This document shows, piece by piece, positions 1 through 24,000 of a DNA stretch of 24,000 bases; within the stretch, counting starts at the first letter, position 1, and every line of letters begins with the position of its first letter. Position numbers and translations under genes: made by a program. Source of the stretch: Leptolyngbya sp. SIO1E4 (GTDB lineage Bacteria; Cyanobacteriota; Cyanobacteriia; Phormidesmidales; Phormidesmidaceae); NCBI GenBank assembly GCA_010672825.2, contig JAAHFU020000006.1, positions 163,549 through 187,548 of the forward strand, written 5' to 3'. A model generated the notes under the pieces. That model did no database searches. It had not been told where the DNA came from and worked only from the letters and a program-made list of their open reading frames with translations.

Positions 1-1378
1 CAGCAATATGAGGCGACTCATCCAACGGCGTTTCATTAGCGTCCGGTTGCCCTGAATAGCGGATGTCCCTAGCCGCAATCGCGGCGTCCTGTTCGGCAGG
101 ATGGGTGAAAGAAATACCAGCATCCTCACCGTAGGCTTCGGCTAGGGCTTCGAGTTCATCATCTCTGGCGGCAATCGCGTTCGCTCTCTCGACGCCCTGC
201 TCACTCGCCACACTGTCAGCTTCGCTATAGGCGTTCATCAGTCGGGCTCGCTCACGGCCAATCGTCGTCGGGCCGTCAGGGTCAGGCCGATACGCCGAAA
301 CCTCGGGCTCAATAGTGCTATCGACCTCCCCATCAGCGGGTTTTGACTCTTCTGGCTGCCATAGGGCTTCTAGACGGTCTCGAACATCCGCCACATTAGA
401 CAAGTCCACGGAGGGAGGCAGTCCAGCCTTTTCAATCACGTCCTCGACAGAATCGGACCAGGCAAACTCAGGAATCGTTTCCCCGATGAGTTCCCGTGCT
501 TGGTCAAGATGGGTCACGGCCTCCAGACGTTGGTTACGCCCCTGCTGGATATAGCTCACCACAGCTTCGAGCCGATCCTCACTATCCATGACGACCTGGA
601 AGCGATCGCTGACGGTATAAAACTCACCACCGACCGCTTCAATCAGGTTCTGGTCGAGATAGACATCCTTTTGCTTCTTGCCTGTCTCTAGAAAATACTC
701 GCCCGAATTTTCAGCGGCCTTGATCGTGATTTGCTCGTCACTGGTTTTGATAATGCCTTCGCGGTGAGTGATTTCAAAGAACTGCCGCACATTACAAGCT
801 TCAGGTAACTCAACCGGCGACTCCGACAGCTCCTGCTGGATGTTGTAGCCGCGTGGCAACAGCATCATCGGTTCGATGCTCCCCCCCGCGACCGTGGCAT
901 TGATGACATGCCCTTGCTTGCCGTATTTCTCAGCCGCCCGGAATAGATTCCCCCGCAGCACCTGGCGCACTTCCCGCTGGCCGGTCTGCTGCTCATCAAA
1001 CTGGCTCATGATGTCTTTCCCCATCAGGGTCTGGGTGACCGGCGTGACTTCAACCGCCCCCATCCGATCGGTATTCAGCTTGGATAGGGGGATCGGAATT
1101 TCTCGGTTTGAGGCATCGGCCAGGGAGACTCGAACTTCCCACTTGGAGGCCACCACCGGATTGGCATCCCCGAATTCCCCTTTACCCTGGGAGCCTTGCC
1201 CGTCCTCCAGCAGGGAATCCAAAGAACGCCCGCGCTTACCCACCTGAGTAATCGCCCCATAGAAGATGCGTCCGTTGTCGGTGCACTCCCATAGATATTG
1301 AAGAAATCGGGAATGGCAGCTGCGCTGGCCCAGCCGGTTAAACCGTTCGTAATCCTCTGCGCCAAAGCCTTTGTCTTG
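1..1378 (-). CDS. Hypothetical protein; N-terminal ~459 codons of a long ORF that runs off the left edge; start codon unresolved
   Basis: Hand translation of the minus strand (codon first bases 1378, 1375, ...) is stop-free down to base 2. Sampled peptides: ...WECTDNGRIFYGAITQVGKRGRSLDSLLEDGQ...NATVAGGSIEPMMLLPRGYNIQQEL...IGRERARLMNAYSEADS... It is probably missing from the ORF track because it has no in-window stop. An in-frame TGA at 1379-1381 bounds it. The first in-frame GTG is at 1243 and the first ATG at 1063. No family recognised. Confidence 0.55.
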
Positions 1379-1400
1379 TCAAAGGGATATTCTTATGAGC

Positions 1401-12154: not shown

Positions 12155-13873
12155 ATGACTGAATCTAACCAGCCGCCTCAATCACCCCACCCCATTGTGA
12201 CCTCGTCTTCCTTCGCAGGTGAATCATCCAACTCATTGAATGGCCATGGCTCGTCAGAGCCCACAACCGCTGCCGAATTGGCAGGGCTCCAGCTCGACGC
12301 AGAGGATAGGCTCGCCGCCTCAGAGCCACTCCCCGAAACGCCCAGCCCAACGACGAGTCGTCGCAGCATTGCCCATGCCCCCTTACCGCGAACCCTTCTC
12401 GTCGCCGGGGCACTGGGCTTCGTCGCGACCTTTACGCTCATATTTAGTCGCCTCAACAGTGGTAATCGACCGGTGGCAGACACCCCCGAAGCGCCTGAAG
12501 CCCCACCGGAAGAACCCTTTGACCAGAGCGATGTCTACCGGAGCCAACTCGCCTTAGTCGATCAGGCGGACGCTCAACAGCCTCAAGCCGCTCCCACTCC
12601 CCCCTCGGAGCCGCCACCTGTCGCCGAGGAAGACCCACCGGAAGCGCCGCCAACCGTCGCCACGGCGGCACCCTCCCCGCCGCCGAGACCGACTCCCGCC
12701 GCACAACCCGAACCGCCTCCGCGATCCGCTCCCGCCGCACAACCCGAGCCCGAACCCATCGATCCCTTCGAGCGCTGGCATACGTTGGCACAAGCGGGCA
12801 CACAAGGAGAACAGTTCGCCCTCGTGCCACCGGTTGAACCCGCGGCCCCCCTGACCGTCACGCCGGGGAACACGTCTGACACGAGTCCCCCCTCGAATCC
12901 GGTCGCGCCGATCGAGGTCGCAGCGGCCGCCGGAACCGCTGGATTCCCCGTCGCGATCATCGGCGACAATCCCATCGAGGGGATGCCACCTCCCAGCGCT
13001 CCATCCGCTGAGCCTGCCTTCTCAACACCCATACCACAGCCCCAATCCCAGGAGTCGCAGGCGTCTCTTTTAGTCTCAGCGCCACCGTCGATTCCGATTC
13101 AGACCGCCCAAACCAGTTCCCCAGGCGCACAGGGCATCCTCGAACGGCGTCCGGTCAGTGGTATTCAGACGGAACCGCAGACGATTCAGGGCAATACGCA
13201 GGTGTTACAGGTACCCATGGGCACGACAGCCGCTGCCGAACTCGCGGTCCCCATCGTCGCCTCTCGGAGTGGGGAAACCTTGGGACGCTTTGCCGTCCGC
13301 CTCAAAGACGACCTCAAAGATCCCTACGACCAGGTCGCCTTACCCGCAGGCACCCTGCTGATCACAGATGTCCTCAGCATCGATGATGATTCCTTGGCCA
13401 TTCAACAAACCGTCGTCGCACTCGTTTATGAGGACGCCCAAGGACAGATTGTACAAGAGGCCATCGCCCCGAATGTCCTCATTATTCGGGGCAGTGATGG
13501 CGGAGCCTTGATCGCGTCCCTCTCAGGCGGCGGCAATCGTCGCAACCTGTTTACCGACATCCTGGCAATTGGCGGGGCGTCAGCGCTAGCGGAAGTGGGA
13601 AGCGCCCTCAACGAGGGTGACCTCTTCACCTCCACGGCCAGCAGTTCCGATGGTGATGAGACCGAAACGACCACCACCACCGTCCGCGATAGTGATGACC
13701 CGAATGTTCTCGGGGCCGTTATGGAAGGCTTCTTTGAGTCCACGGCTGACCGGCTGCAGGGTGAAATTGAGGACGACCGGGATAATGACGAGGATCTCGA
13801 TCCCGTCCTGACCGTCACTCAGGGTCAAGACTTACAAGTCTTTGTCAACGGCATCTTGAACATCCGGAGGTAG
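12155..13873 (+). CDS. VirB10/TrbI-like protein
   Basis: 572-aa ORF with the classic VirB10 layout. It has an N-terminal cytoplasmic tail, one TM (LLVAGALGFVATFTLIF) and a long Pro-rich region (includes PPRPTPAAQPEPPPRSAPAAQPEPEP). The C-terminal domain reads LQVPMGTTAAAELAVPIVAS...GRFAVRLKDDL...LPAGTLLITDV...VLIIRGSDGGALIA. Confidence 0.65.
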   Translation: MTESNQPPQSPHPIVTSSSFAGESSNSLNGHGSSEPTTAAELAGLQLDAEDRLAASEPLPETPSPTTSRRSIAHAPLPRTLLVAGALGFVATFTLIFSRLNSGNRPVADTPEAPEAPPEEPFDQSDVYRSQLALVDQADAQQPQAAPTPPSEPPPVAEEDPPEAPPTVATAAPSPPPRPTPAAQPEPPPRSAPAAQPEPEPIDPFERWHTLAQAGTQGEQFALVPPVEPAAPLTVTPGNTSDTSPPSNPVAPIEVAAAAGTAGFPVAIIGDNPIEGMPPPSAPSAEPAFSTPIPQPQSQESQASLLVSAPPSIPIQTAQTSSPGAQGILERRPVSGIQTEPQTIQGNTQVLQVPMGTTAAAELAVPIVASRSGETLGRFAVRLKDDLKDPYDQVALPAGTLLITDVLSIDDDSLAIQQTVVALVYEDAQGQIVQEAIAPNVLIIRGSDGGALIASLSGGGNRRNLFTDILAIGGASALAEVGSALNEGDLFTSTASSSDGDETETTTTTVRDSDDPNVLGAVMEGFFESTADRLQGEIEDDRDNDEDLDPVLTVTQGQDLQVFVNGILNIRR

Positions 13874-13877
13874 ACCT

Positions 13878-14783
13878 ATGCGCCAGATTTTAAGGTCCGT
13901 CATGCTTTCTTTTGTGCCCTTCGTTGCAGCCATCCCCATCATCAGTACACCAGCTCCGGCGATCGCTCAGGTCTTACCGTCCGTAGATTCTGAATTTCTG
14001 CCACCGCTGCGGCACGCCCAGCAATCGGTCGCCTTTGTCAGTCAAGAGCGGGCCTATCGCTATGCCACCCCGATTCGTCTCTATCCAGGCCGCAGTGAGA
14101 TGATTGACTTCCGAACCGATGAAGTCATCACCTACATCCAACTCTCGGATCTCTCGGGCATTGTCTATCAGACCAATGCTCCCTTGGAGTCCGGCCAAGC
14201 GAAGCTGATTGCCTTGCGTCGGATCGAGGAGCTGGACTTCCCTGGCCAAACCGAAAGTCCGGTCCCCAACTTACTGGTGACCACCATCGACCCCCAAGGC
14301 GAACAACGCACCTACACCTTCAACCTGATATCTCACAACCGACAACCGCAAGCCGATGACACCAATGGCGTTGCCATCGTCACCGCCGCCGAAGCCCAGA
14401 CAGAGCGGCTCAATATGCGACGCAATGAGGGTCACCTCACGGGGGAAACCACCCTCACCGTCGATACCTTGCAAACCGCTTTGGGGCTCGCCGATATTGA
14501 TGACCTGGTCGTGGGCCTCGATACCGCGATCGCCTTGGGCTATACCCCAGCCAACGATCCAGTCGTCGCTCAAACCCAAACGGTCATTGATCTAGTTGAA
14601 GCGGGCACCCCCTTACGGCAGGCCATTCAAGACGCAGGGCTGCCTATCGAGGTGGCGATCGCGCTCGGTGAAATCGGTCTGAGGAGTGCATTCTTCCCGA
14701 TTGATGGCCCAGAACCCCCAGCTGAAGTACCGGCTGAAGACATCGAGCCCCGTAGCGAGGAGGAGCCGGATGTCGCCCCTTAA
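13878..14783 (+). CDS. Secreted VirB9/TrbG-like protein
   Basis: 301-aa ORF with a signal peptide (MRQILRSVMLSFVPFVAAIPIISTPAPAIAQ). The N-terminal domain pattern is IRLYPGRSEMIDFRTDEVITYIQLSD...AKLIALRRIE...NLLVTTID...RTYTFNLI. It lies between the VirB10-like and VirD4-like genes. Confidence 0.55.
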   Translation: MRQILRSVMLSFVPFVAAIPIISTPAPAIAQVLPSVDSEFLPPLRHAQQSVAFVSQERAYRYATPIRLYPGRSEMIDFRTDEVITYIQLSDLSGIVYQTNAPLESGQAKLIALRRIEELDFPGQTESPVPNLLVTTIDPQGEQRTYTFNLISHNRQPQADDTNGVAIVTAAEAQTERLNMRRNEGHLTGETTLTVDTLQTALGLADIDDLVVGLDTAIALGYTPANDPVVAQTQTVIDLVEAGTPLRQAIQDAGLPIEVAIALGEIGLRSAFFPIDGPEPPAEVPAEDIEPRSEEEPDVAP

Positions 14784-16593
14784 TCGCGATCCGCTGGCAC
14801 AGATAGAGCAGGCAGAACAGACGACGGAAGAGCCGCCCCTCTGGATGGAGCCGATCGCAACCACCTGGGACACAATATCCGCGATGCTATTCAATGCACA
14901 GGGCCTAGCACTGATTAGCATTTTTGCCGTCCTGATGATTCTGCAACTGTTTGCCCGCAAACGCGGCGACTTGACTTCGGCCCGGTGGGCCAGAGGACGT
15001 GAGAAGGGCCAAGCCCGCAAACGAGCCCAGAAGCAACTTAAGAGCAACCGCATCAACGACGTGACGCTGTGGTGCGGCACGCCCAACACATCATCGACGC
15101 TCTATATTCCCGATGCCAATCAAAGTATCGTCGTCATTGGGCGACCGAAGTCTGGTAAAACCTTCAGCGTCATCAATCCGCTGCTCAAATCCGCGATCGA
15201 GCAACAGATGGCCCTGTGCCTCTATGACTACAAGGCCGATGACCAGGGCTTAGGCGGACAGATGGCCTACATTGCGACCTTGGCCGCTCGGCATGACTAC
15301 AAGGTGAATGTCTTTGCCCCAGGGCGGCCCTATAGTTGTGTCATCAATCCCCTCGATTTTCTGGAAGACGAGAATGACGACACCACTGCCGCCGTCCTCG
15401 CTGAGGTGTTCCACAAAAATCTGAAGGGGGACAAGGGACGGGGGGATGACTTCTTCGGCCCCGCTGGACAACGCTTGATTCAAGCCTTATTCCAGTTTGC
15501 GAAATCGACGCCATATCCCGATATCGCCATGGCCTTCAGTATCGCTCGATTGACTCATTTACCCGAGCGATTGATTTATGCCGACCAGCAGGGACGCTTA
15601 CCGCTAGCCGTTCGCATTGCCTTTTCTCAGCTGATGCAAACAGCGGGGGCTGAGAAAACCACCTCTGGCATTACAGCCACGGCCAGTGATGTGCTAACCC
15701 GCTTCATGAGTCAGCGCATCCTGCCCTCGCTCATGGGCAAAACCAACATCAGCATTGAACTGGGGCAGAAAGAACTCATCGTTTTTCAGAGCGATATCTT
15801 TCGGCAAGCCGTTGTCAACCCCTTACTGGCCGCCCTCATCAACGTCATCATCGACCGGAATTTCTCGATTCAGCGAACGGTCCCCTTAGTCTTTAGTGCC
15901 GATGAATTTCCCACCCTGTATCTTCCAAAGTGTCCCACTTGGCCCAACGAGCATCGCTCCAAAGGCTTTGTCGGCATCTTTGGCTTCCAGTCCTTCCCCC
16001 AGATTCGCGACACCTATGGTCGGGAAAAGACCGATATCTTACTGTCCGGGGTCGGTACTCATTTCTGGTTCAATCCCGGCAACCGGGATACCGCCAAAGC
16101 CTATTCTGACTACATCGGGGAGACCGAAATCACGATTCGCAATACCTCCTGGTCAAGGCAGCGCGGCGACGACCGGGGGCGCAACCGCACGATATCCGAG
16201 CAGACCCGCACCCGGCCTCTGATTCTAGCCGACGATATCACCCGCTTTGATGTTGGGGAATGTATCGTGATCAATCCGGCTTACCGCAATCAAAAGCAAG
16301 CCAACTTGCCCCAACACGTCAATCAGATTCGCATTTCTGAGGCCGATCAAACCCTGGAAAAGCACTGCGAACAGCTCTGGCAAGAAAAGATCAGGCCGCA
16401 GCTCATTCAACGCGAACAGCGACGACGACCCGACCTCGACATTGAGGCCCAGCTCCAGCTTCGCATCGACGAAGCCGAGCGGCGATTACCCCTGCCTCCC
16501 GACAAGGCAGAAGACTCCGGTGGAACACCCCCGGCTCTCGCCAATCACAAACAGACTCCCGCTGCGGTGGGACGCTTTATCCCTGACCTATAA
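14770..16593 (+). CDS. Type IV coupling protein (VirD4/TraG/TraD family ATPase)
   Basis: ATG at 14770 is preceded by GAGGAGGAG and overlaps the previous gene's end; the track ORF begins earlier at 14686. It has an N-terminal TM (GLALISIFAVLMILQLF). Walker A is VVIGRPKSGKTF (GRPKSGKT at 15139-15162). Walker-B-like is LVFSADEFPTLY. GIFGFQSFPQIRDTYG is typical of T4CPs. Confidence 0.85.
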   Translation: MSPLNRDPLAQIEQAEQTTEEPPLWMEPIATTWDTISAMLFNAQGLALISIFAVLMILQLFARKRGDLTSARWARGREKGQARKRAQKQLKSNRINDVTLWCGTPNTSSTLYIPDANQSIVVIGRPKSGKTFSVINPLLKSAIEQQMALCLYDYKADDQGLGGQMAYIATLAARHDYKVNVFAPGRPYSCVINPLDFLEDENDDTTAAVLAEVFHKNLKGDKGRGDDFFGPAGQRLIQALFQFAKSTPYPDIAMAFSIARLTHLPERLIYADQQGRLPLAVRIAFSQLMQTAGAEKTTSGITATASDVLTRFMSQRILPSLMGKTNISIELGQKELIVFQSDIFRQAVVNPLLAALINVIIDRNFSIQRTVPLVFSADEFPTLYLPKCPTWPNEHRSKGFVGIFGFQSFPQIRDTYGREKTDILLSGVGTHFWFNPGNRDTAKAYSDYIGETEITIRNTSWSRQRGDDRGRNRTISEQTRTRPLILADDITRFDVGECIVINPAYRNQKQANLPQHVNQIRISEADQTLEKHCEQLWQEKIRPQLIQREQRRRPDLDIEAQLQLRIDEAERRLPLPPDKAEDSGGTPPALANHKQTPAAVGRFIPDL

Positions 16594-17259: not shown

Positions 17260-20200
17260 ATGGTATTAACTTTGCTGGGGATTTCAGTCAAGCTGCTTTT
17301 ATTAACTAAAAGTATGGAAGAGTCCAGAGCTGTTTCTCTCCTCCGGGAACTGTTAGATGCCACAAGCTTGAGTGACTTGCAGGAAGATATTTTTCGTCGT
17401 TCGTGGCGGGGACTTTCTTACTCTCAAATATCTGTCGAGCTTGGATACGATACCGGTTATGTCAGGGTTGTTGGATTTCAGCTTTGGCAAGCACTTTCTG
17501 GCGTTTTAGGGCAACCTGTTACCAAGAAAAACCTGCGCTCTAGTTTTGAGCAGTATGGTCAACAGCTTGCCGCACCATCGCCAAGATCAAGTGCAGCGAT
17601 AACGCCAACTGACGTCGCAGCCGCCTGCCCTCAAGATTGGGGCGATCGCCCTGACCTGACTAGCCTCTACGGTCGCGAGTCTGAGCTAGCCCTATTGCGA
17701 GACTGGATTCGGCGCGATCGCTGTCGGCTCATTGGGATTTTTGGCATCGGCGGCATTGGCAAAACGGTGATTGCGGCTCACTGTGCCCAGCAGCTTCAGG
17801 ATGAGTTTCAGTATGTGTTTTGGCGATCGCTGCGCAATGCGCCTCCCCCGGATCAATTTTTGGTAGAGGCTATTCAGTTTTTATCCGATCAGCAAGAAAT
17901 TGCCCAAAACCTGCCGCTAGACGTGGCCGATCGCATTGACCACTTGCTGGGATATCTCAAACGGCAACGGTGCTTGGTCATCCTCGATAATGCGGAGGCG
18001 ATCTTACAGAGCGGCGCATATACGGGGCGCTATCGGCCTGGTTATGAAACCTACGGCAGCCTACTGCAGCAAATGGGAGAAGAACACCATCAAAGTTGTG
18101 TGTTGCTCACCAGCCGGGAAAAGAGCCGCGAGTTCGTACGGCTGGCGGGTGACCAGTTACCCGTGCGAGCACTGCAATTAGGTGGTCTGGCTGCCGCCGA
18201 AGGACAGGCAGTGATGGAGCAAGCCGGGACGTTTGCGGCGACCCCTGCGGTGTGGCAACAGCTAGTGGATTTCTACGTGGGCAATCCCCTGGCGTTACGG
18301 ATTGCGGGGGCGGCGATTCAAGAACTCTTTGCCGGTGAAGTGGCGCGCTTTTTGGACTATTCGGTGTATGTCTTTGACGACATTAATGATTTGCTGGACG
18401 AGCAGTTCAGCCGACTGTCAGCGTTGGAGCAGCAGGTCATGTATTGGCTGGCGATCGAGCGCGAGCCCGTGACCATCGAAACCCTGGCAGCCAACATTTT
18501 GGAGTCCGTGGCCAAACGGGACCTTATGGAAGCGCTGAAATCTCTCGTGCGGCGATCGCTGATTTACCCGGCGGCGATGGGCTTTACCCAGCAACCTGTG
18601 GTCATGGAATATCTCGTCGAACGGTTGCGGGTGCAAATGCAGCAGGAGATTATCTCTCAGAGTCCCAACCTGCTGATTAGCCATGCCCTGATCAAAAACC
18701 AAGCCAAGGAATATGTCAAAACCAGTCAGCAGCGGGTATTAGTCGATCCGCTCGGTCGGGCGCTGTTGGATGAACTTGGCAGTCTGGCGGCGCTGGCCGA
18801 CCAGCTACAACAGTTGACGGACTTGTTGCGATCGGGTTGGGCCGAACGCGCTGGCTATGCTGCCGGTAACATTCTCTATTTGCTGCAGCAGTGCAGGCTA
18901 GATTTGCAGAACTACGACCTGTCGCAGTTGCCTTTGCGTCAAGTTGACCTGCAAATGACGGCTCTGCCAGGGGTCAACCTACAAGGGGCAGTGCTAGATC
19001 AGACGGTGTTTGCTAACAACCTGGACTATTACATGTCAGTCGCCATCTCACCAAACCAGCGGTACATTGCCGTCGGCAGCACTGAAGGCGACGTTATTCT
19101 GTGGGACTTTCCCGAAATGAGGTCTCACCGAGTCCTGCGGGGGCATGGGCCGATGTTTGTGGTTTGGTTGGCCTTTAGCGCTGATGGTCAGTATCTGGCC
19201 AGTGCTGGGTTTGATCACGCAGTCAAGGTTTGGCATATCGAGACGGCAACCTGTGTGGCGACCTTACAGGCGCATCGCGGGCCGGTCGGCGCTGTCGTTT
19301 TTACGCCTGATGGCAGCCAGTTGATTTCTAGCAGTCACGATGGCCAAATCATCTTTTGGGAAACGACGAACTGGACCTGTGTGCAAGCGATCCAGGCCGA
19401 CCCAGGACAGGTGGCCGCGATCGCCCTCAGTCCCGACGGCAGGACGTTACTGAGTGGCCACGAGCTGGGCCAGATTGAGTTACGGGATTTATCTACCGGC
19501 GATCGCCGGGTCAGCCACGAGCATCACAACGCTTACATTTGGGCGGCAGTCTACCCCACCACGGGTAACCAGGTCTTCTCCGCGAGCCATGACCAAACGA
19601 TCCGGGCGTGGAATGTGGAGACTGGCGAGTGCCTATTTACCCTCACAGGCCATCAAGGTGAAATATCGGGTCTCGCCTGTACTCCCGACGGGCGCATCTT
19701 AGCCAGTGCGTGTCACGACCAAACAGTCCGCTTATGGGATGCGCAAACGGGAAAATGTCTGAATGTTTTGCAAGGGCATCAGGGGATCGTTTGGGATGTT
19801 GATATCAGCCCAGATGGTGAAATCCTCACCAGCGTAGGGTTTGATCGCAGCGTGCGGCTGTGGGAAATCAAAACGGGACGACCGCTAAAAACCCTGCAGG
19901 GCAGTTATAAAGCGCTTTGGTCAGTGATATTTAGCCCCGATGGCCGAACGCTGATCAGCGGCGGCGAAGATCGGCGTATCTGGTTATGGGATTTTGAACG
20001 GCGAACGTATACCCATCAGTGGACGGCCCACACGTATGAAATTACGGCGATCGCCATTCACCCTCAAGGCCAGATACTGGCGACCGGTGGTGGCGATGGC
20101 ACGGTTAAATTGTGGGACCTAGACACCGGCCAATGTTTACACACCCTGGTTGACTATCAGGCTTGGCTCTGGGCGATCGCCTTTAGTCCCGATGGGCGCT

Positions 20201-20886
20201 GGGTCGCGGGCACCGGCCATCGCTACAGCACCTGTGTTTGGGATGTGTATACGGGGCAATGCGTCGCCACCCTAGACGAGCACCATCAAAATTTGGTCTG
20301 GAGTCTGGCTTTCAGCCACGATGGTCAATACATGGTCACAGGCTGTCACGATCTCACACTGAGATTATGGCACCTCGAAACTTGGGACTGCTTTGCCGCG
20401 TTGTCCGGACAGATCAAGGGATACATCAACAGTGTCGATTGCAGCCCCAATAGTCACCTCATCGCCTGCGGCGGTTACGACGCTCAGGTTTACATCTGGG
20501 ATGCGGAGGCCCAGACTTGTCTGCACGTTTTACCCGGACATCAAGGCGTGATCTGGAACGTGAAATTTAGTCCGACGGGCGATCGCATTGCCAGTACCAG
20601 TTTTGACGGCACCGTGCGGGTGTGGGATGTGCAGACGGGGGAATGTTTGCAGACGCTAGCGGGTCACCAGAGCTTTGTGAACTCCGCCTGCTTCCATCCC
20701 CACGACAACATTTTGGTCAGCGCTAGTCGCGACGGCACTCTAAAAGTGTGGGACTTGGCGACGGGCGATTGTACCGCCACCCTCAGCCCACCCAAAATGT
20801 ACGAGGGGCTGAACATCACGGGCGTGCGGGGACTCGACCCCGTGCAGCGAGAAATGCTGTTGGCCCTGGGCGCGATCGAGCATTAA
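17260..20886 (+). CDS. STAND NTPase: N-terminal sigma-r4/LuxR-like HTH, NB-ARC-type P-loop NTPase, 14 WD40 repeats
   Basis: 1208-aa ORF; the more likely start is ATG at 17314 (MEESRAV...). The HTH-like segment is LSDLQEDIFRRSWRGLSYSQISVELGYDTGYVRVVGFQLWQAL. Walker A is LIGIFGIGGIGKT (17743-17766) and Walker B is CLVILDNAE. Fourteen WD repeats span ~19030-20770. The tail YEGLNITGVRGLDPVQREMLLALGA is typical of cyanobacterial WD40 proteins. Confidence 0.9.
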   Translation: MVLTLLGISVKLLLLTKSMEESRAVSLLRELLDATSLSDLQEDIFRRSWRGLSYSQISVELGYDTGYVRVVGFQLWQALSGVLGQPVTKKNLRSSFEQYGQQLAAPSPRSSAAITPTDVAAACPQDWGDRPDLTSLYGRESELALLRDWIRRDRCRLIGIFGIGGIGKTVIAAHCAQQLQDEFQYVFWRSLRNAPPPDQFLVEAIQFLSDQQEIAQNLPLDVADRIDHLLGYLKRQRCLVILDNAEAILQSGAYTGRYRPGYETYGSLLQQMGEEHHQSCVLLTSREKSREFVRLAGDQLPVRALQLGGLAAAEGQAVMEQAGTFAATPAVWQQLVDFYVGNPLALRIAGAAIQELFAGEVARFLDYSVYVFDDINDLLDEQFSRLSALEQQVMYWLAIEREPVTIETLAANILESVAKRDLMEALKSLVRRSLIYPAAMGFTQQPVVMEYLVERLRVQMQQEIISQSPNLLISHALIKNQAKEYVKTSQQRVLVDPLGRALLDELGSLAALADQLQQLTDLLRSGWAERAGYAAGNILYLLQQCRLDLQNYDLSQLPLRQVDLQMTALPGVNLQGAVLDQTVFANNLDYYMSVAISPNQRYIAVGSTEGDVILWDFPEMRSHRVLRGHGPMFVVWLAFSADGQYLASAGFDHAVKVWHIETATCVATLQAHRGPVGAVVFTPDGSQLISSSHDGQIIFWETTNWTCVQAIQADPGQVAAIALSPDGRTLLSGHELGQIELRDLSTGDRRVSHEHHNAYIWAAVYPTTGNQVFSASHDQTIRAWNVETGECLFTLTGHQGEISGLACTPDGRILASACHDQTVRLWDAQTGKCLNVLQGHQGIVWDVDISPDGEILTSVGFDRSVRLWEIKTGRPLKTLQGSYKALWSVIFSPDGRTLISGGEDRRIWLWDFERRTYTHQWTAHTYEITAIAIHPQGQILATGGGDGTVKLWDLDTGQCLHTLVDYQAWLWAIAFSPDGRWVAGTGHRYSTCVWDVYTGQCVATLDEHHQNLVWSLAFSHDGQYMVTGCHDLTLRLWHLETWDCFAALSGQIKGYINSVDCSPNSHLIACGGYDAQVYIWDAEAQTCLHVLPGHQGVIWNVKFSPTGDRIASTSFDGTVRVWDVQTGECLQTLAGHQSFVNSACFHPHDNILVSASRDGTLKVWDLATGDCTATLSPPKMYEGLNITGVRGLDPVQREMLLALGAIEH

Positions 20887-22174: not shown

Positions 22175-22411
22175 TGGGGTAGATAACGCATCGAGTCACT
22201 ACCTGAGCTGGCGATATCAATCAATTGAACCTAGAGACGGAAAAAGTTGCAGGCTGTGTTTGTTCGCGATCGCGTGACATCAACCCTTTTTGGTCCGAGA
22301 TACTGTCAAAATGGCCTGAAGTGAACGATGGCCAACGGTCAACGGGTCTCGCCAGGAGGCTGTTTGCCGTGGTGCCTGGTTGCCCTGCCCCTGCCGCTGC
22401 TAACGATTGCC

Positions 22412-24000
22412 ATGCCGACTTTTCAAAACGCCTTCATCTCCTACGGCCGTGCCGACAGCAAAGCCTTTGCTGCCCAACTGAACGATCGCTTGATGGCCGC
22501 CGGCCTCACTGTCTGGTTCGACTTTGAGGACATTCCCCTGGGGGTGAATTACCAAAAGCAAATCGACAACGGCGTCGAGAAAGCCGACAACTTTCTGTTT
22601 TTGATCTCGCCCCACTCCATCAACTCCCCCTACTGCGGCCTGGAGTTGGAACTAGCACTGAAACGAGGCAAACGCATCATTCCCATCTTGCATGTAGAGG
22701 AAATTAGTCGGGAGACCTGGCAAGAGCGCAACCCTGGCGGGACGGACGCGCAGTGGGCGGAGTATCAAGCAACGGGCAAGCATTCCAGCTTTGCCAACAT
22801 GCACCCCGCCATCAGCAAAATCAACTGGGTCTACTTTCGTGACGGCATCGACGATTTTGAAGCCGGGTTGCAGGGGCTGCTCGACATCTTTGCGCGACAG
22901 CAAGATTACGTCCGGCAGCACACCGAACTGCTCGCCGCCGCTCTCACCTGGGAGCAAAACCAAAAGCGCACGCAATATTTGCTCACGGGTCAAGCCCGCC
23001 AACAGGCCGAAGACTGGCTGCAAGTTCGGTTCCCGGAGGCACAGCCGCCCTGTGTGCCCACCGATTTGCACTGCGAATACATCACCGAAAGCATCAAAAA
23101 CGCCCACAACTTGATGACCCAGGTGTTTTTGGCCCATGCCGAGGCTGACGCTGAGGTGATGCAGCAGATTCGCCGTTGCTTACAGCGGGAAGGGATTACG
23201 GTGTGGACGAGCGCCACCGACATTCGCTCGGGGGAAGACTTTCAGCAGGCCATCCGGCGCGGCATTGAGCAGGCGGATAATTTGGTGTATTTGCTATCGC
23301 CCGCCGCGATCGCCTCCGAATTTTGCCAGCAAGAGTTGGACTATGCCCTGTCATTGCACAAGCGCATCATTCCGGTGCTCGTCAGTGAAACGGATGCAGC
23401 CAATATTCCCGAAGCGCTGCAGGGATTGCAATATATCGAGTGGCTACCGTCTGAAGACGAGGCAGAACAGGCAGAGCGAGATCGCCCCCTGCTGAAAGCC
23501 CTCAAAGACGATGCCGCCTACTTTAACGAGCACAAAGTTCTGCTCACTCAAGCGCTGAAGTGGGAGCACCAGCAGCGTAACCCCAGTGTGTTGCTGCGGG
23601 GCTATAACCTGCGCCATGCCGAAGCGTGGCTGAAGGTGTCCCAAACTAGAACCCGCCACCAACCCACCACCCTGCAAACAGAGTTTTTACAGGAAAGTCT
23701 GCGCCAGCCCCCGGCCCCGTCGCTAGATGTATTCATTTCTTACTCGCGGGTGGATTCGGACTTTGCCCGGAGGCTGAACGATCGCTTGCAAATGCAGGGC
23801 AAGCTCACCTGGTTTGACCAGGAAAGCATCGCTTCGGGGGTAGACTTTCAGCAGGAAATCTATCGCGGCATCGAAACGTCGGATCACTTTCTGTTCATCC
23901 TCTCGCCGGAGGCGGTGAATTCGCCCTACTGCGCCGATGAGGTGGAATATGCCCACAAGCTGAACAAGCGAGTGGTGACGGTGCGCCATCGCCCGGTGGA
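22412..24000 (+). CDS. Multi-TIR-domain protein (at least three tandem TIR domains); partial, runs off the right edge
   Basis: Hand translation from ATG at 22412 (alternative ATG at 22328) is stop-free to 24000. TIR1 is MPTFQNAFISYGRADSKAF...LFLISPHSINSPYCGLELELA. TIR2 (from ~23123) is VFLAHAEADAEV...VYLLSPAAIASEFCQQELDYA. TIR3 (from ~23726) is DVFISYSRVDSDFA...LFILSPEAVNSPYCADEVEYA. It is probably missing from the ORF track because it has no in-window stop. Confidence 0.85.
   Translation, partial: MPTFQNAFISYGRADSKAFAAQLNDRLMAAGLTVWFDFEDIPLGVNYQKQIDNGVEKADNFLFLISPHSINSPYCGLELELALKRGKRIIPILHVEEISRETWQERNPGGTDAQWAEYQATGKHSSFANMHPAISKINWVYFRDGIDDFEAGLQGLLDIFARQQDYVRQHTELLAAALTWEQNQKRTQYLLTGQARQQAEDWLQVRFPEAQPPCVPTDLHCEYITESIKNAHNLMTQVFLAHAEADAEVMQQIRRCLQREGITVWTSATDIRSGEDFQQAIRRGIEQADNLVYLLSPAAIASEFCQQELDYALSLHKRIIPVLVSETDAANIPEALQGLQYIEWLPSEDEAEQAERDRPLLKALKDDAAYFNEHKVLLTQALKWEHQQRNPSVLLRGYNLRHAEAWLKVSQTRTRHQPTTLQTEFLQESLRQPPAPSLDVFISYSRVDSDFARRLNDRLQMQGKLTWFDQESIASGVDFQQEIYRGIETSDHFLFILSPEAVNSPYCADEVEYAHKLNKRVVTVRHRPV

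Follow-up and report, generated by a model that had tools for sequence, protein, structure and literature searches.

A candidate membrane receptor with an array of three TIR domains in Leptolyngbya sp. SIO1E4

In this study, we examined a gene for a protein with three consecutive TIR domains that starts close to the end of a 24,000-nt stretch of DNA from Leptolyngbya sp. SIO1E4 (contig JAAHFU020000006.1 of GenBank assembly GCA_010672825.2, positions 163549-187548; this whole stretch is called the window below). The full gene occupies positions 185960-190255 of the same contig and encodes a protein of 1431 amino acids (aa), which is made up, in this order, of three TIR-linker units, one transmembrane helix, a helical stalk and 16 WD40 blades. 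We think it moderately likely that this protein is a stand-alone single-pass inner-membrane receptor, in which a sensor outside the cytoplasm controls a cytoplasmic array of NAD+-cleaving TIR enzymes (NADases) with a role in conflict or cell death; its enzymology, its topology and its trigger are inferred. The protein belongs to a large family in which two TIR subtypes, here called A and B, alternate along the chain.

The three TIR-linker units and their glutamates

The reading frame is open from position 22325 and runs unbroken to the end of the window. The ATG at position 22412 was taken as the start because all 70 aligned homologues share the N-terminus MxxFx[DN]AFISYGRADS that begins there. 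When the downstream DNA was read up to the window-equivalent position 26707, neither a stop nor a frameshift was found, and the gene is therefore not decayed, a possibility that the initial annotation, made from the window sequence, had raised. Pfam TIR_2 (PF13676) matches three separate stretches of the protein (E=7e-81 for the part within the window and 3.4e-85 for the full protein; 283 bits against a cut-off of 28), and the flavodoxin-like fold is backed by AlphaFold2 and Foldseek. This bears out the three TIR modules that had been placed in the first ~530 aa; the motifs YCGLELE, FCQQELD and YCADEVE and both linker sequences are likewise present as quoted there, and the helical linker noticed after TIR1 and TIR2 also follows TIR3. 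Each TIR+linker unit is about 200 aa long, and in a three-segment alignment the units share 32-40% pairwise identity, which is far above chance. The sensor end, which had been expected beyond the window, consists of the single transmembrane helix and the 16 WD40 blades, and the segment that joins TIR3 to the WD40 part is made up of the third linker, the transmembrane helix and the helical stalk. The blades repeat with a period of 41 aa and a mean pairwise identity of 37%, which rules out an extreme homogenisation of the repeats. No NTPase family, be it NACHT, NB-ARC, nSTAND or another, is among the Pfam matches listed for the full protein.

The closest solved relatives of each TIR in a PDB sequence search are the TIR domains of Cat1, AbTir and SARM1. 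E78, E308 and E510, all encoded by GAG codons, each align with the Glu of the Cat1 motif 'WCWDELE', and the alignments for TIR1 and TIR3 likewise match E78 and E510 to the Glu of the AbTir motif 'WTNYELD'. In the Cat1 paper, this Glu is E74, which is among the residues lining the NADase site, and alanine mutants are defective. The proposal that every TIR retains the candidate catalytic Glu is therefore upheld by the alignments, none of which puts the residue off the catalytic position. Across 71 proteins with three units, neither E78 nor E510 varies, and the conservation of E308 is 90% or higher; in a separate tabulation by unit rank, the Glu was present in 50 of 50 proteins in each unit. As judged from this Glu at the position of Cat1 E74, the TIRs are predicted to be of the NADase type. 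At the positions of Cat1 S7, N10, D33, S68 and E74, TIR1 and TIR3 have S, R, D, S and E, and TIR2 has A241, E244, S267, S302 and E308; TIR2 thus differs from type A in having Ala for Ser, Glu for Arg and Ser for Asp. By this comparison, the type A pocket appears compatible with activity and the type B pocket appears altered. As a side observation, two of the five triple-TIR paralogues of the genome have lost the Glu in TIR3, which is replaced by Leu in one (C4:1740830-1745038) and by Gly in the other (C1:554495-557689). Both keep it in TIR1 and TIR2, and the 1431-aa protein keeps all three.

Family, alternating subtypes and predicted structure

With aa 1-720 as the query, at least 1722 of 8000 scored candidates matched, most of them from filamentous cyanobacteria and Candidatus Parabeggiatoa and annotated only as 'TIR domain-containing protein' or 'WD40 repeat protein'. 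An exhaustive search of 1.84 billion representatives with a profile of the unit returned 5,496 proteins at E<=1e-30, the best 150 of which all have 3-7 units. When units were counted with hidden Markov models (HMMs) built from the query, three were found in 50 relatives, five in 51, seven in eight, six in four and eight in one, with essentially every TIR followed by a linker. The C-terminal parts of the relatives are WD40 or CHASE2, and rarely of the dCache or FGE-sulfatase type. With its three units in A-B-A order, a transmembrane helix about 15 aa further on and a WD40 sensor, the protein described here is a member of this (TIR-linker)n-transmembrane-sensor family. Within the phylum, a full three-unit match was present in 10 of 301 sampled genomes (9 of 132 genera), often in several copies, the copy numbers being lower bounds as at most four candidates were scored per genome. 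Of the five triple-TIR paralogues encoded in the source genome, four have WD40 and the fifth has a C-terminus containing several transmembrane segments; the genome also encodes a single-unit TIR-linker-transmembrane-WD40 protein. The initial annotation, which our results support in part, had called the architecture unusual relative to single-TIR defence proteins; this holds with respect to characterised systems, but not as a statement of rarity, since the family is large and has 3-8 units per protein. Extreme relatives are P0011 (2500 aa), P0055 (1986 aa) and P0029 (1883 aa); a single protein among them has 8 TIR units, another combines 6-7 units with an FGE-sulfatase/C-type-lectin-like domain, and another combines 7 units with dCache. 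The FGE-sulfatase/C-type-lectin-like domain has the fold that diversity-generating retroelements usually target.

The units of the family are of two kinds. At the key positions tabulated by unit rank, odd units read FISYxRxD...WFD and even units read F[SAC][YH]x[ED]xD...WT[NSH]. All even units (46/46) fall into a single clade, with a support of 0.996, in a tree built from 116 units of 24 proteins, and within proteins, units of the same parity are 46% identical compared with 31% for units of different parity. Six alignment columns separate the subtypes (R13/E244, F36/T266, D37/S267, H94/V324, V167/F371 and T171/K375), two of which, R13/E244 and D37/S267, correspond to the Cat1 pocket residues N10 and D33. 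The order A(BA)n was found in 106 of 118 representatives (97 ABA and 9 ABABA), all N-terminally complete and outside the subtype training set, and nearly all arrays finish with a type A unit beside the membrane. For these type calls, collinear HMM fragments were merged, since an insertion in unit 1 splits the match. This 28-aa insertion (EEISRETWQERNPGGTDAQWAEYQATGK, aa ~95-122, window 22694-22777), in which W103 and W115 are nearly invariant, occurs family-wide in unit 1 and is absent from all later units. The query array was called A-B-A with margins of ~100 bits; all five triple-TIR paralogues of the genome are A-B-A, and the single-unit protein is of type A. The repeat that has been amplified is therefore probably the B-A pair, which fits the predominance of three, five and seven units. 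The divergent first strand that had been noted in TIR2 is real; it is explained by the A/B alternation as a conserved signature of the subtype seen throughout the family, and is not a sign of decay. A literature search found no paper on A/B alternation.

The two ends of the protein have diverged at different rates. Compared with the closest orthologue, the TIR and linker regions are 82-99% identical and the two WD40 halves 69% and 59% identical, a pattern that, at the level of sequence, is as would be expected for a conserved output and a diversifying sensor.

The initial annotation had suggested structure prediction as a way to see how the three TIRs pack. AlphaFold2 modelled aa 1-640 from 71 sequences with a mean pLDDT (per-residue confidence) of 89 and a pTM (predicted template modelling score) of 0.84, and the three units are predicted to be held in a defined mutual arrangement, that is, as a rigid array. 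With this pTM over 640 aa, a covalent concatemer with fixed geometry is plausible as far as the model goes. Each linker is predicted to form three helices, those of linker 1 spanning aa 164-182, 193-203 and 218-231, and invariant residues of linker 1 are H170, W180, L190-L191 and W202. The linker had no match in Pfam at E<=10 beyond noise, and a query consisting of linker, transmembrane helix and stalk returned almost only TIR proteins. For these two reasons, we rejected the idea that the linker is a known domain or a general connector and treat it as a TIR-specific extension. Foldseek against the PDB returned single TIR domains only (TMt 0.7-0.85); for the array as a whole, no similar solved structure was found (TMq <=0.19). 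In a second AlphaFold2 model, covering aa 560-1100 (pLDDT 88.8), one helix, aa 621-661, spans both the third helix of the last linker and the transmembrane segment, and is followed by three stalk helices and then by the propeller.

A single transmembrane helix about 15 aa past the last linker is a feature of most of 121 relatives. In the 112 that have a transmembrane helix after the array, it starts at a median of 15 aa after the last linker, as it does in the query, in which it starts at aa 645. In the same 112 relatives, the 15 residues before the helix contain on average 4.7 Lys+Arg residues, compared with 2.1 in the 15 residues after it, and the TIR array is therefore predicted to be cytoplasmic and the C-terminal part to be outside. 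Some relatives have CHASE2 or dCache at the position of WD40, and both of these are classical sensor domains that lie outside the cytoplasm. By this residue bias and by analogy with the swapped domains, the WD40 propeller is probably located outside the cytoplasm, most likely in the periplasm. The C-terminal tail follows the consensus GCxW...SDRxLCDxI with two nearly invariant Cys residues, which may be joined by a disulfide bond if this part of the protein lies in the periplasm.

Genomic context and possible functions

The features of the gene and the genes around it are listed in Table 1.

Table 1. Parts of the multi-TIR gene and neighbouring genes (two-dot ranges are window positions; aa, residues of the 1431-aa protein)
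Feature	Position	Strand	Details and basis
Multi-TIR gene, 5' part (1589 nt)	22412..24000	+	aa 1-529 of 1431; gene runs on to window-equivalent 26707
TIR1, type A	22415..22903	+	aa 2-164; S10, R13, D37, S72, E78 (22643-22645); Pfam, alignment to Cat1
Linker 1	22904..23107	+	aa 165-232; three-helix module; unit alignment, AlphaFold2
TIR2, type B	23108..23515	+	aa 233-368; keeps S302 and E308 (23333-23335); Pfam, alignment to Cat1
Linker 2	23516..23719	+	aa 369-436; type B signature 'HK' (K375) in first helix; unit alignment, AlphaFold2
TIR3, type A	23720..24000	+	aa 437-568, cut by the window end at aa 529; S443, R446, D469, S504, E510 (23939-23941)
Linker 3	aa 569-640	+	beyond the window
Transmembrane helix	aa ~645-663	+	beyond the window; hydrophobic segment
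Stalk, three helices	aa 665-732	+	beyond the window; AlphaFold2
WD40 blades, 16	aa ~737-1400	+	beyond the window; Pfam and repeat count
C-terminal tail	aa ~1401-1431 (L006:4612-4704)	+	beyond the window; two family-conserved Cys
Conjugation block	window 12155-16593		upstream; TrbI-like gene, type IV coupling protein
STAND-WD40 gene	window 17260-20886		upstream
IS110 transposase and GmrSD endonuclease	L006:7406-10468		downstream

An orphan 253-aa gene also lies upstream of the multi-TIR gene, and the 344-kb contig that carries all of these may be a plasmid or an integrated element. No operon partner of the WD40-type gene is conserved, either at the locus or beside the close orthologues, because the neighbourhoods of the orthologues consist of unrelated housekeeping genes.

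In the receptor model that we favour, the N-terminal 640 residues would form a rigid cytoplasmic A-B-A array of TIR+linker units, the third helix of the last linker would run unbroken into the transmembrane helix, and a three-helix stalk and a double WD40 propeller with 16 blades would stand across the membrane, most likely in the periplasm. Binding of a ligand to the fast-evolving WD40 end, or its clustering, would be passed on through the continuous helix and would alter the packing of the TIR array, within one chain or between neighbouring chains. In this way, composite sites for NAD+ cleavage would be completed, as happens in SARM1, AbTir, TIR-SAVED and Cat1, and the output, either NAD+ depletion or an ADP-ribose-derived signal, would stop the growth of the affected cell in the filament or kill it, which would be a role in conflict or defence. 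Besides the domain order, the aligned Glu residues, the predicted topology, the AlphaFold2 models and the faster divergence of the WD40 part described above, we counted in favour of this model the patchy, multi-copy distribution of the family, the lack of a conserved neighbour gene and the mobile and conflict-type genes at this locus.

Several points weigh against it. The strong conservation of the TIR array is less typical of proteins engaged in an arms race, and the close orthologues sit among housekeeping genes rather than in defence islands. Of the seven cis pocket residues of Cat1, three are not kept in TIR2 (which has A241, E244 and S267 instead), and therefore not all three TIRs need be active. 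Our literature search found no biochemical or genetic data on any member of the family. The two arguments for the proposed orientation are the positive-inside rule and the analogy with swapped domains, and WD40 propellers are mostly cytoplasmic in well-studied proteins.

This last point leads to an alternative arrangement, in which the hydrophobic segment would serve only as an anchor and the whole protein would remain cytoplasmic, with the WD40 part binding phage or cellular proteins as in WD40 sensors of the STAND/NLR type. The WD40 sensors of characterised bacterial and eukaryotic immune proteins are indeed cytoplasmic, and no hydrophobic segment was seen in the adjacent STAND-WD40 protein (17260-20886). 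We nevertheless consider such a tethered cytoplasmic sensor very unlikely, since a single transmembrane helix whose flanks show a clear positive-inside bias places the N- and C-terminal parts on different sides of the membrane, CHASE2 and dCache replace WD40 in relatives, and the two nearly invariant Cys residues of the tail are compatible with a periplasmic disulfide. The housekeeping surroundings of the orthologues and the high conservation of the TIR and linker parts could also be read as signs of a non-immune physiological receptor, whose array would act as an enzyme or an assembly scaffold when filamentous bacteria signal envelope stress, communicate between cells or develop. The concentration of the family in filamentous, multicellular lineages would suit such a role, and CHASE2 is a general signalling sensor. 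Against this stand the invariant catalytic Glu, the patchy multi-copy distribution with a fast-diverging sensor end, and the mobile and conflict-type neighbours at the query locus; to our knowledge, moreover, all characterised bacterial TIR proteins with the catalytic Glu act in conflict. A purely physiological function therefore seems to us distinctly improbable.

A third alternative concerns the output. The TIR array may work as in Thoeris systems: instead of depleting NAD+, it would produce a messenger derived from ADP-ribose, to which a second protein, such as the SLOG (LSDAT_prok) protein of the genome, would respond in trans as the effector. The only LSDAT_prok gene of the genome lies directly upstream of the gene for the single-unit TIR(type A)-linker-transmembrane-WD40 protein (C12:175981-179883; L011:3982-8016, minus strand), and the two may be a Thoeris-like pair. 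A 449-aa protein encoded upstream of this SLOG gene was considered as a SLATT counterpart and ruled out, as it shows no similarity. A 45%-identical LSDAT gene and a DUF4231/SLATT gene flank a CHASE2-type five-TIR relative; a TIR-linker unit was found within 1.5 kb of LSDAT in 4 of 30 loci sampled from other genomes, and in three further genomes LSDAT lies 1-4.3 kb from a triple-TIR gene. These combinations recall type III Thoeris, which pairs TIRs with SLOG, and type VII, which uses SLATT (bioRxiv 10.64898/2025.12.03.692087). However, neither the query gene nor its closest orthologues have a SLOG neighbour, 26 of the 30 LSDAT loci have no TIR-linker gene within 1.5 kb, and LSDAT is more widespread (70 of 251 genomes) than triple-TIR genes. 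The best NCBIfam Thoeris model reached only 110 bits against a cut-off of 220. With 4 of 30 loci, adjacency of SLOG and TIR-linker genes was rejected as a general rule, and we regard a trans-acting messenger for this protein as rather unlikely. The SLOG association is a partial one and absent from the query locus; it keeps a signalling output open beside NAD+ depletion. In the contig of Leptolyngbya sp. Heron Island J that carries a five-TIR CHASE2 gene (L010:1-18491), we also observed DUF4231/SLATT and LSDAT on one side of this gene and TPR, TPS-CHAT and a second multi-TIR-WD40 gene on the other, forming a dense cluster of cell-death-type domains.

The alternation of subtypes allows a more specific form of the receptor model, which we put forward as a tentative and rather speculative idea. 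The A-(B-A)n array may be a covalently pre-built hetero-TIR protofilament, in which type B units, with Arg changed to Glu/Asp, Asp changed to Asn/Ser and the catalytic Glu kept, mainly complete or gate the flanking type A sites, and which an outside ligand would switch on through the continuous linker-transmembrane helix. If this were true, it would represent a new kind of TIR control, in which assembly takes place within one molecule instead of being driven by concentration, and the protein would be a transmembrane receptor with which a multicellular bacterial filament senses its periplasm.

TIR enzymes of animals, plants and bacteria are active only when several TIRs line up, and how this line-up is controlled is a central question. 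The family described here hard-wires 3 to 8 TIRs of two alternating kinds and, if the predicted topology is correct, connects them, by way of a membrane helix, to an exchangeable sensor outside the cytoplasm. Should the array be active, it would provide a natural model of TIR assembly with defined stoichiometry; it would also belong to a receptor through which events outside the bacterial cytoplasm act on the NAD+ chemistry within. With its many members in filamentous cyanobacteria and Beggiatoa-like bacteria, the family is a whole class of candidate receptors that may serve immunity or cell death in multicellular bacteria; a literature search that did not cover subscription-only papers found no published study of multi-TIR bacterial proteins, TIR-WD40 or TIR-CHASE2.

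Comparison with known systems

The TIRs of the query have their fold in common with Cat1 (PDB 9mud), AbTir (7uwg, 7uxu), the SARM1 TIR, TIR-SAVED, TIR-STING and SPARTA TIR-APAZ. TIR NADases of the Cat1, AbTir and SARM1 type need ordered TIR-TIR contacts to form the composite site. The likeness to the Cat1/AbTir group extends to the aligned catalytic Glu and, in the type A units, to the aligned Ser, Asp and Ser pocket residues. In that group, however, identical TIRs on separate chains assemble after ligand binding, whereas the query family has 3-8 TIRs of alternating subtype that are covalently joined through a three-helix linker and attached to a transmembrane sensor.

Thoeris systems (types I-XI; see the bioRxiv study above) consist of a ThsB TIR protein and an effector that is activated by a signal; in type III, more than one TIR protein works with SLOG as the effector, and in type VII the effector is SLATT. 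The query TIRs have the catalytic Glu and match ThsB models at the domain level, and a SLOG gene adjoins some members of the multi-TIR family; in contrast to the separate soluble proteins of Thoeris, the TIRs are fused here to a membrane sensor in one chain. No effector gene was found at the locus or beside the close orthologues, and NCBIfam NF058526 (Thoeris type III ThcB4) scored 110.3 bits, below its cut-off of 220.

The layout, though only the layout, also resembles that of animal Toll-like receptors, which have a repeat sensor, a single transmembrane helix and a TIR on the cytoplasmic side. Toll-like receptors have N-terminal leucine-rich repeats (LRRs) and a C-terminal TIR, an order not found in the query: its TIRs are N-terminal, so that the polarity is reversed, and its repeats are WD40 and not LRR. 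The query TIRs moreover keep the enzymatic Glu, and there is no homology beyond the TIR fold. Tandem double TIRs are known from mollusc Tolls (PMC4929906) and Dictyostelium TirE (bioRxiv 10.64898/2026.04.30.722052); the present family differs from the Toll-like receptors in having at least three units in A/B alternation. The TIR-STAND-repeat conflict proteins (Kaur et al. 2020, 2021; PMC7159879, PMC8195603) likewise occur in filamentous cyanobacteria and combine a TIR effector with a repeat sensor, including one of the WD40 type as in the query. TIR arrays are not described in these papers, and in place of the NTPase switch of the STAND/NLR type, which is missing from the listed Pfam matches, the query has a membrane helix and a TIR array.

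In summary, the parts of the protein, namely an enzymatic-type TIR, WD40 and a transmembrane helix, are known. Their combination, with at least three TIRs of two alternating subtypes on a dedicated linker, one transmembrane helix leading to an exchangeable sensor, and no NTPase among the listed matches, is not described in the literature searched. To this, our study adds the A/B alternation of the TIR subtypes, the mapping of this alternation to pocket residues, the predictions of a rigid array and of a continuous linker-transmembrane helix, the family counts and the partial link to SLOG.

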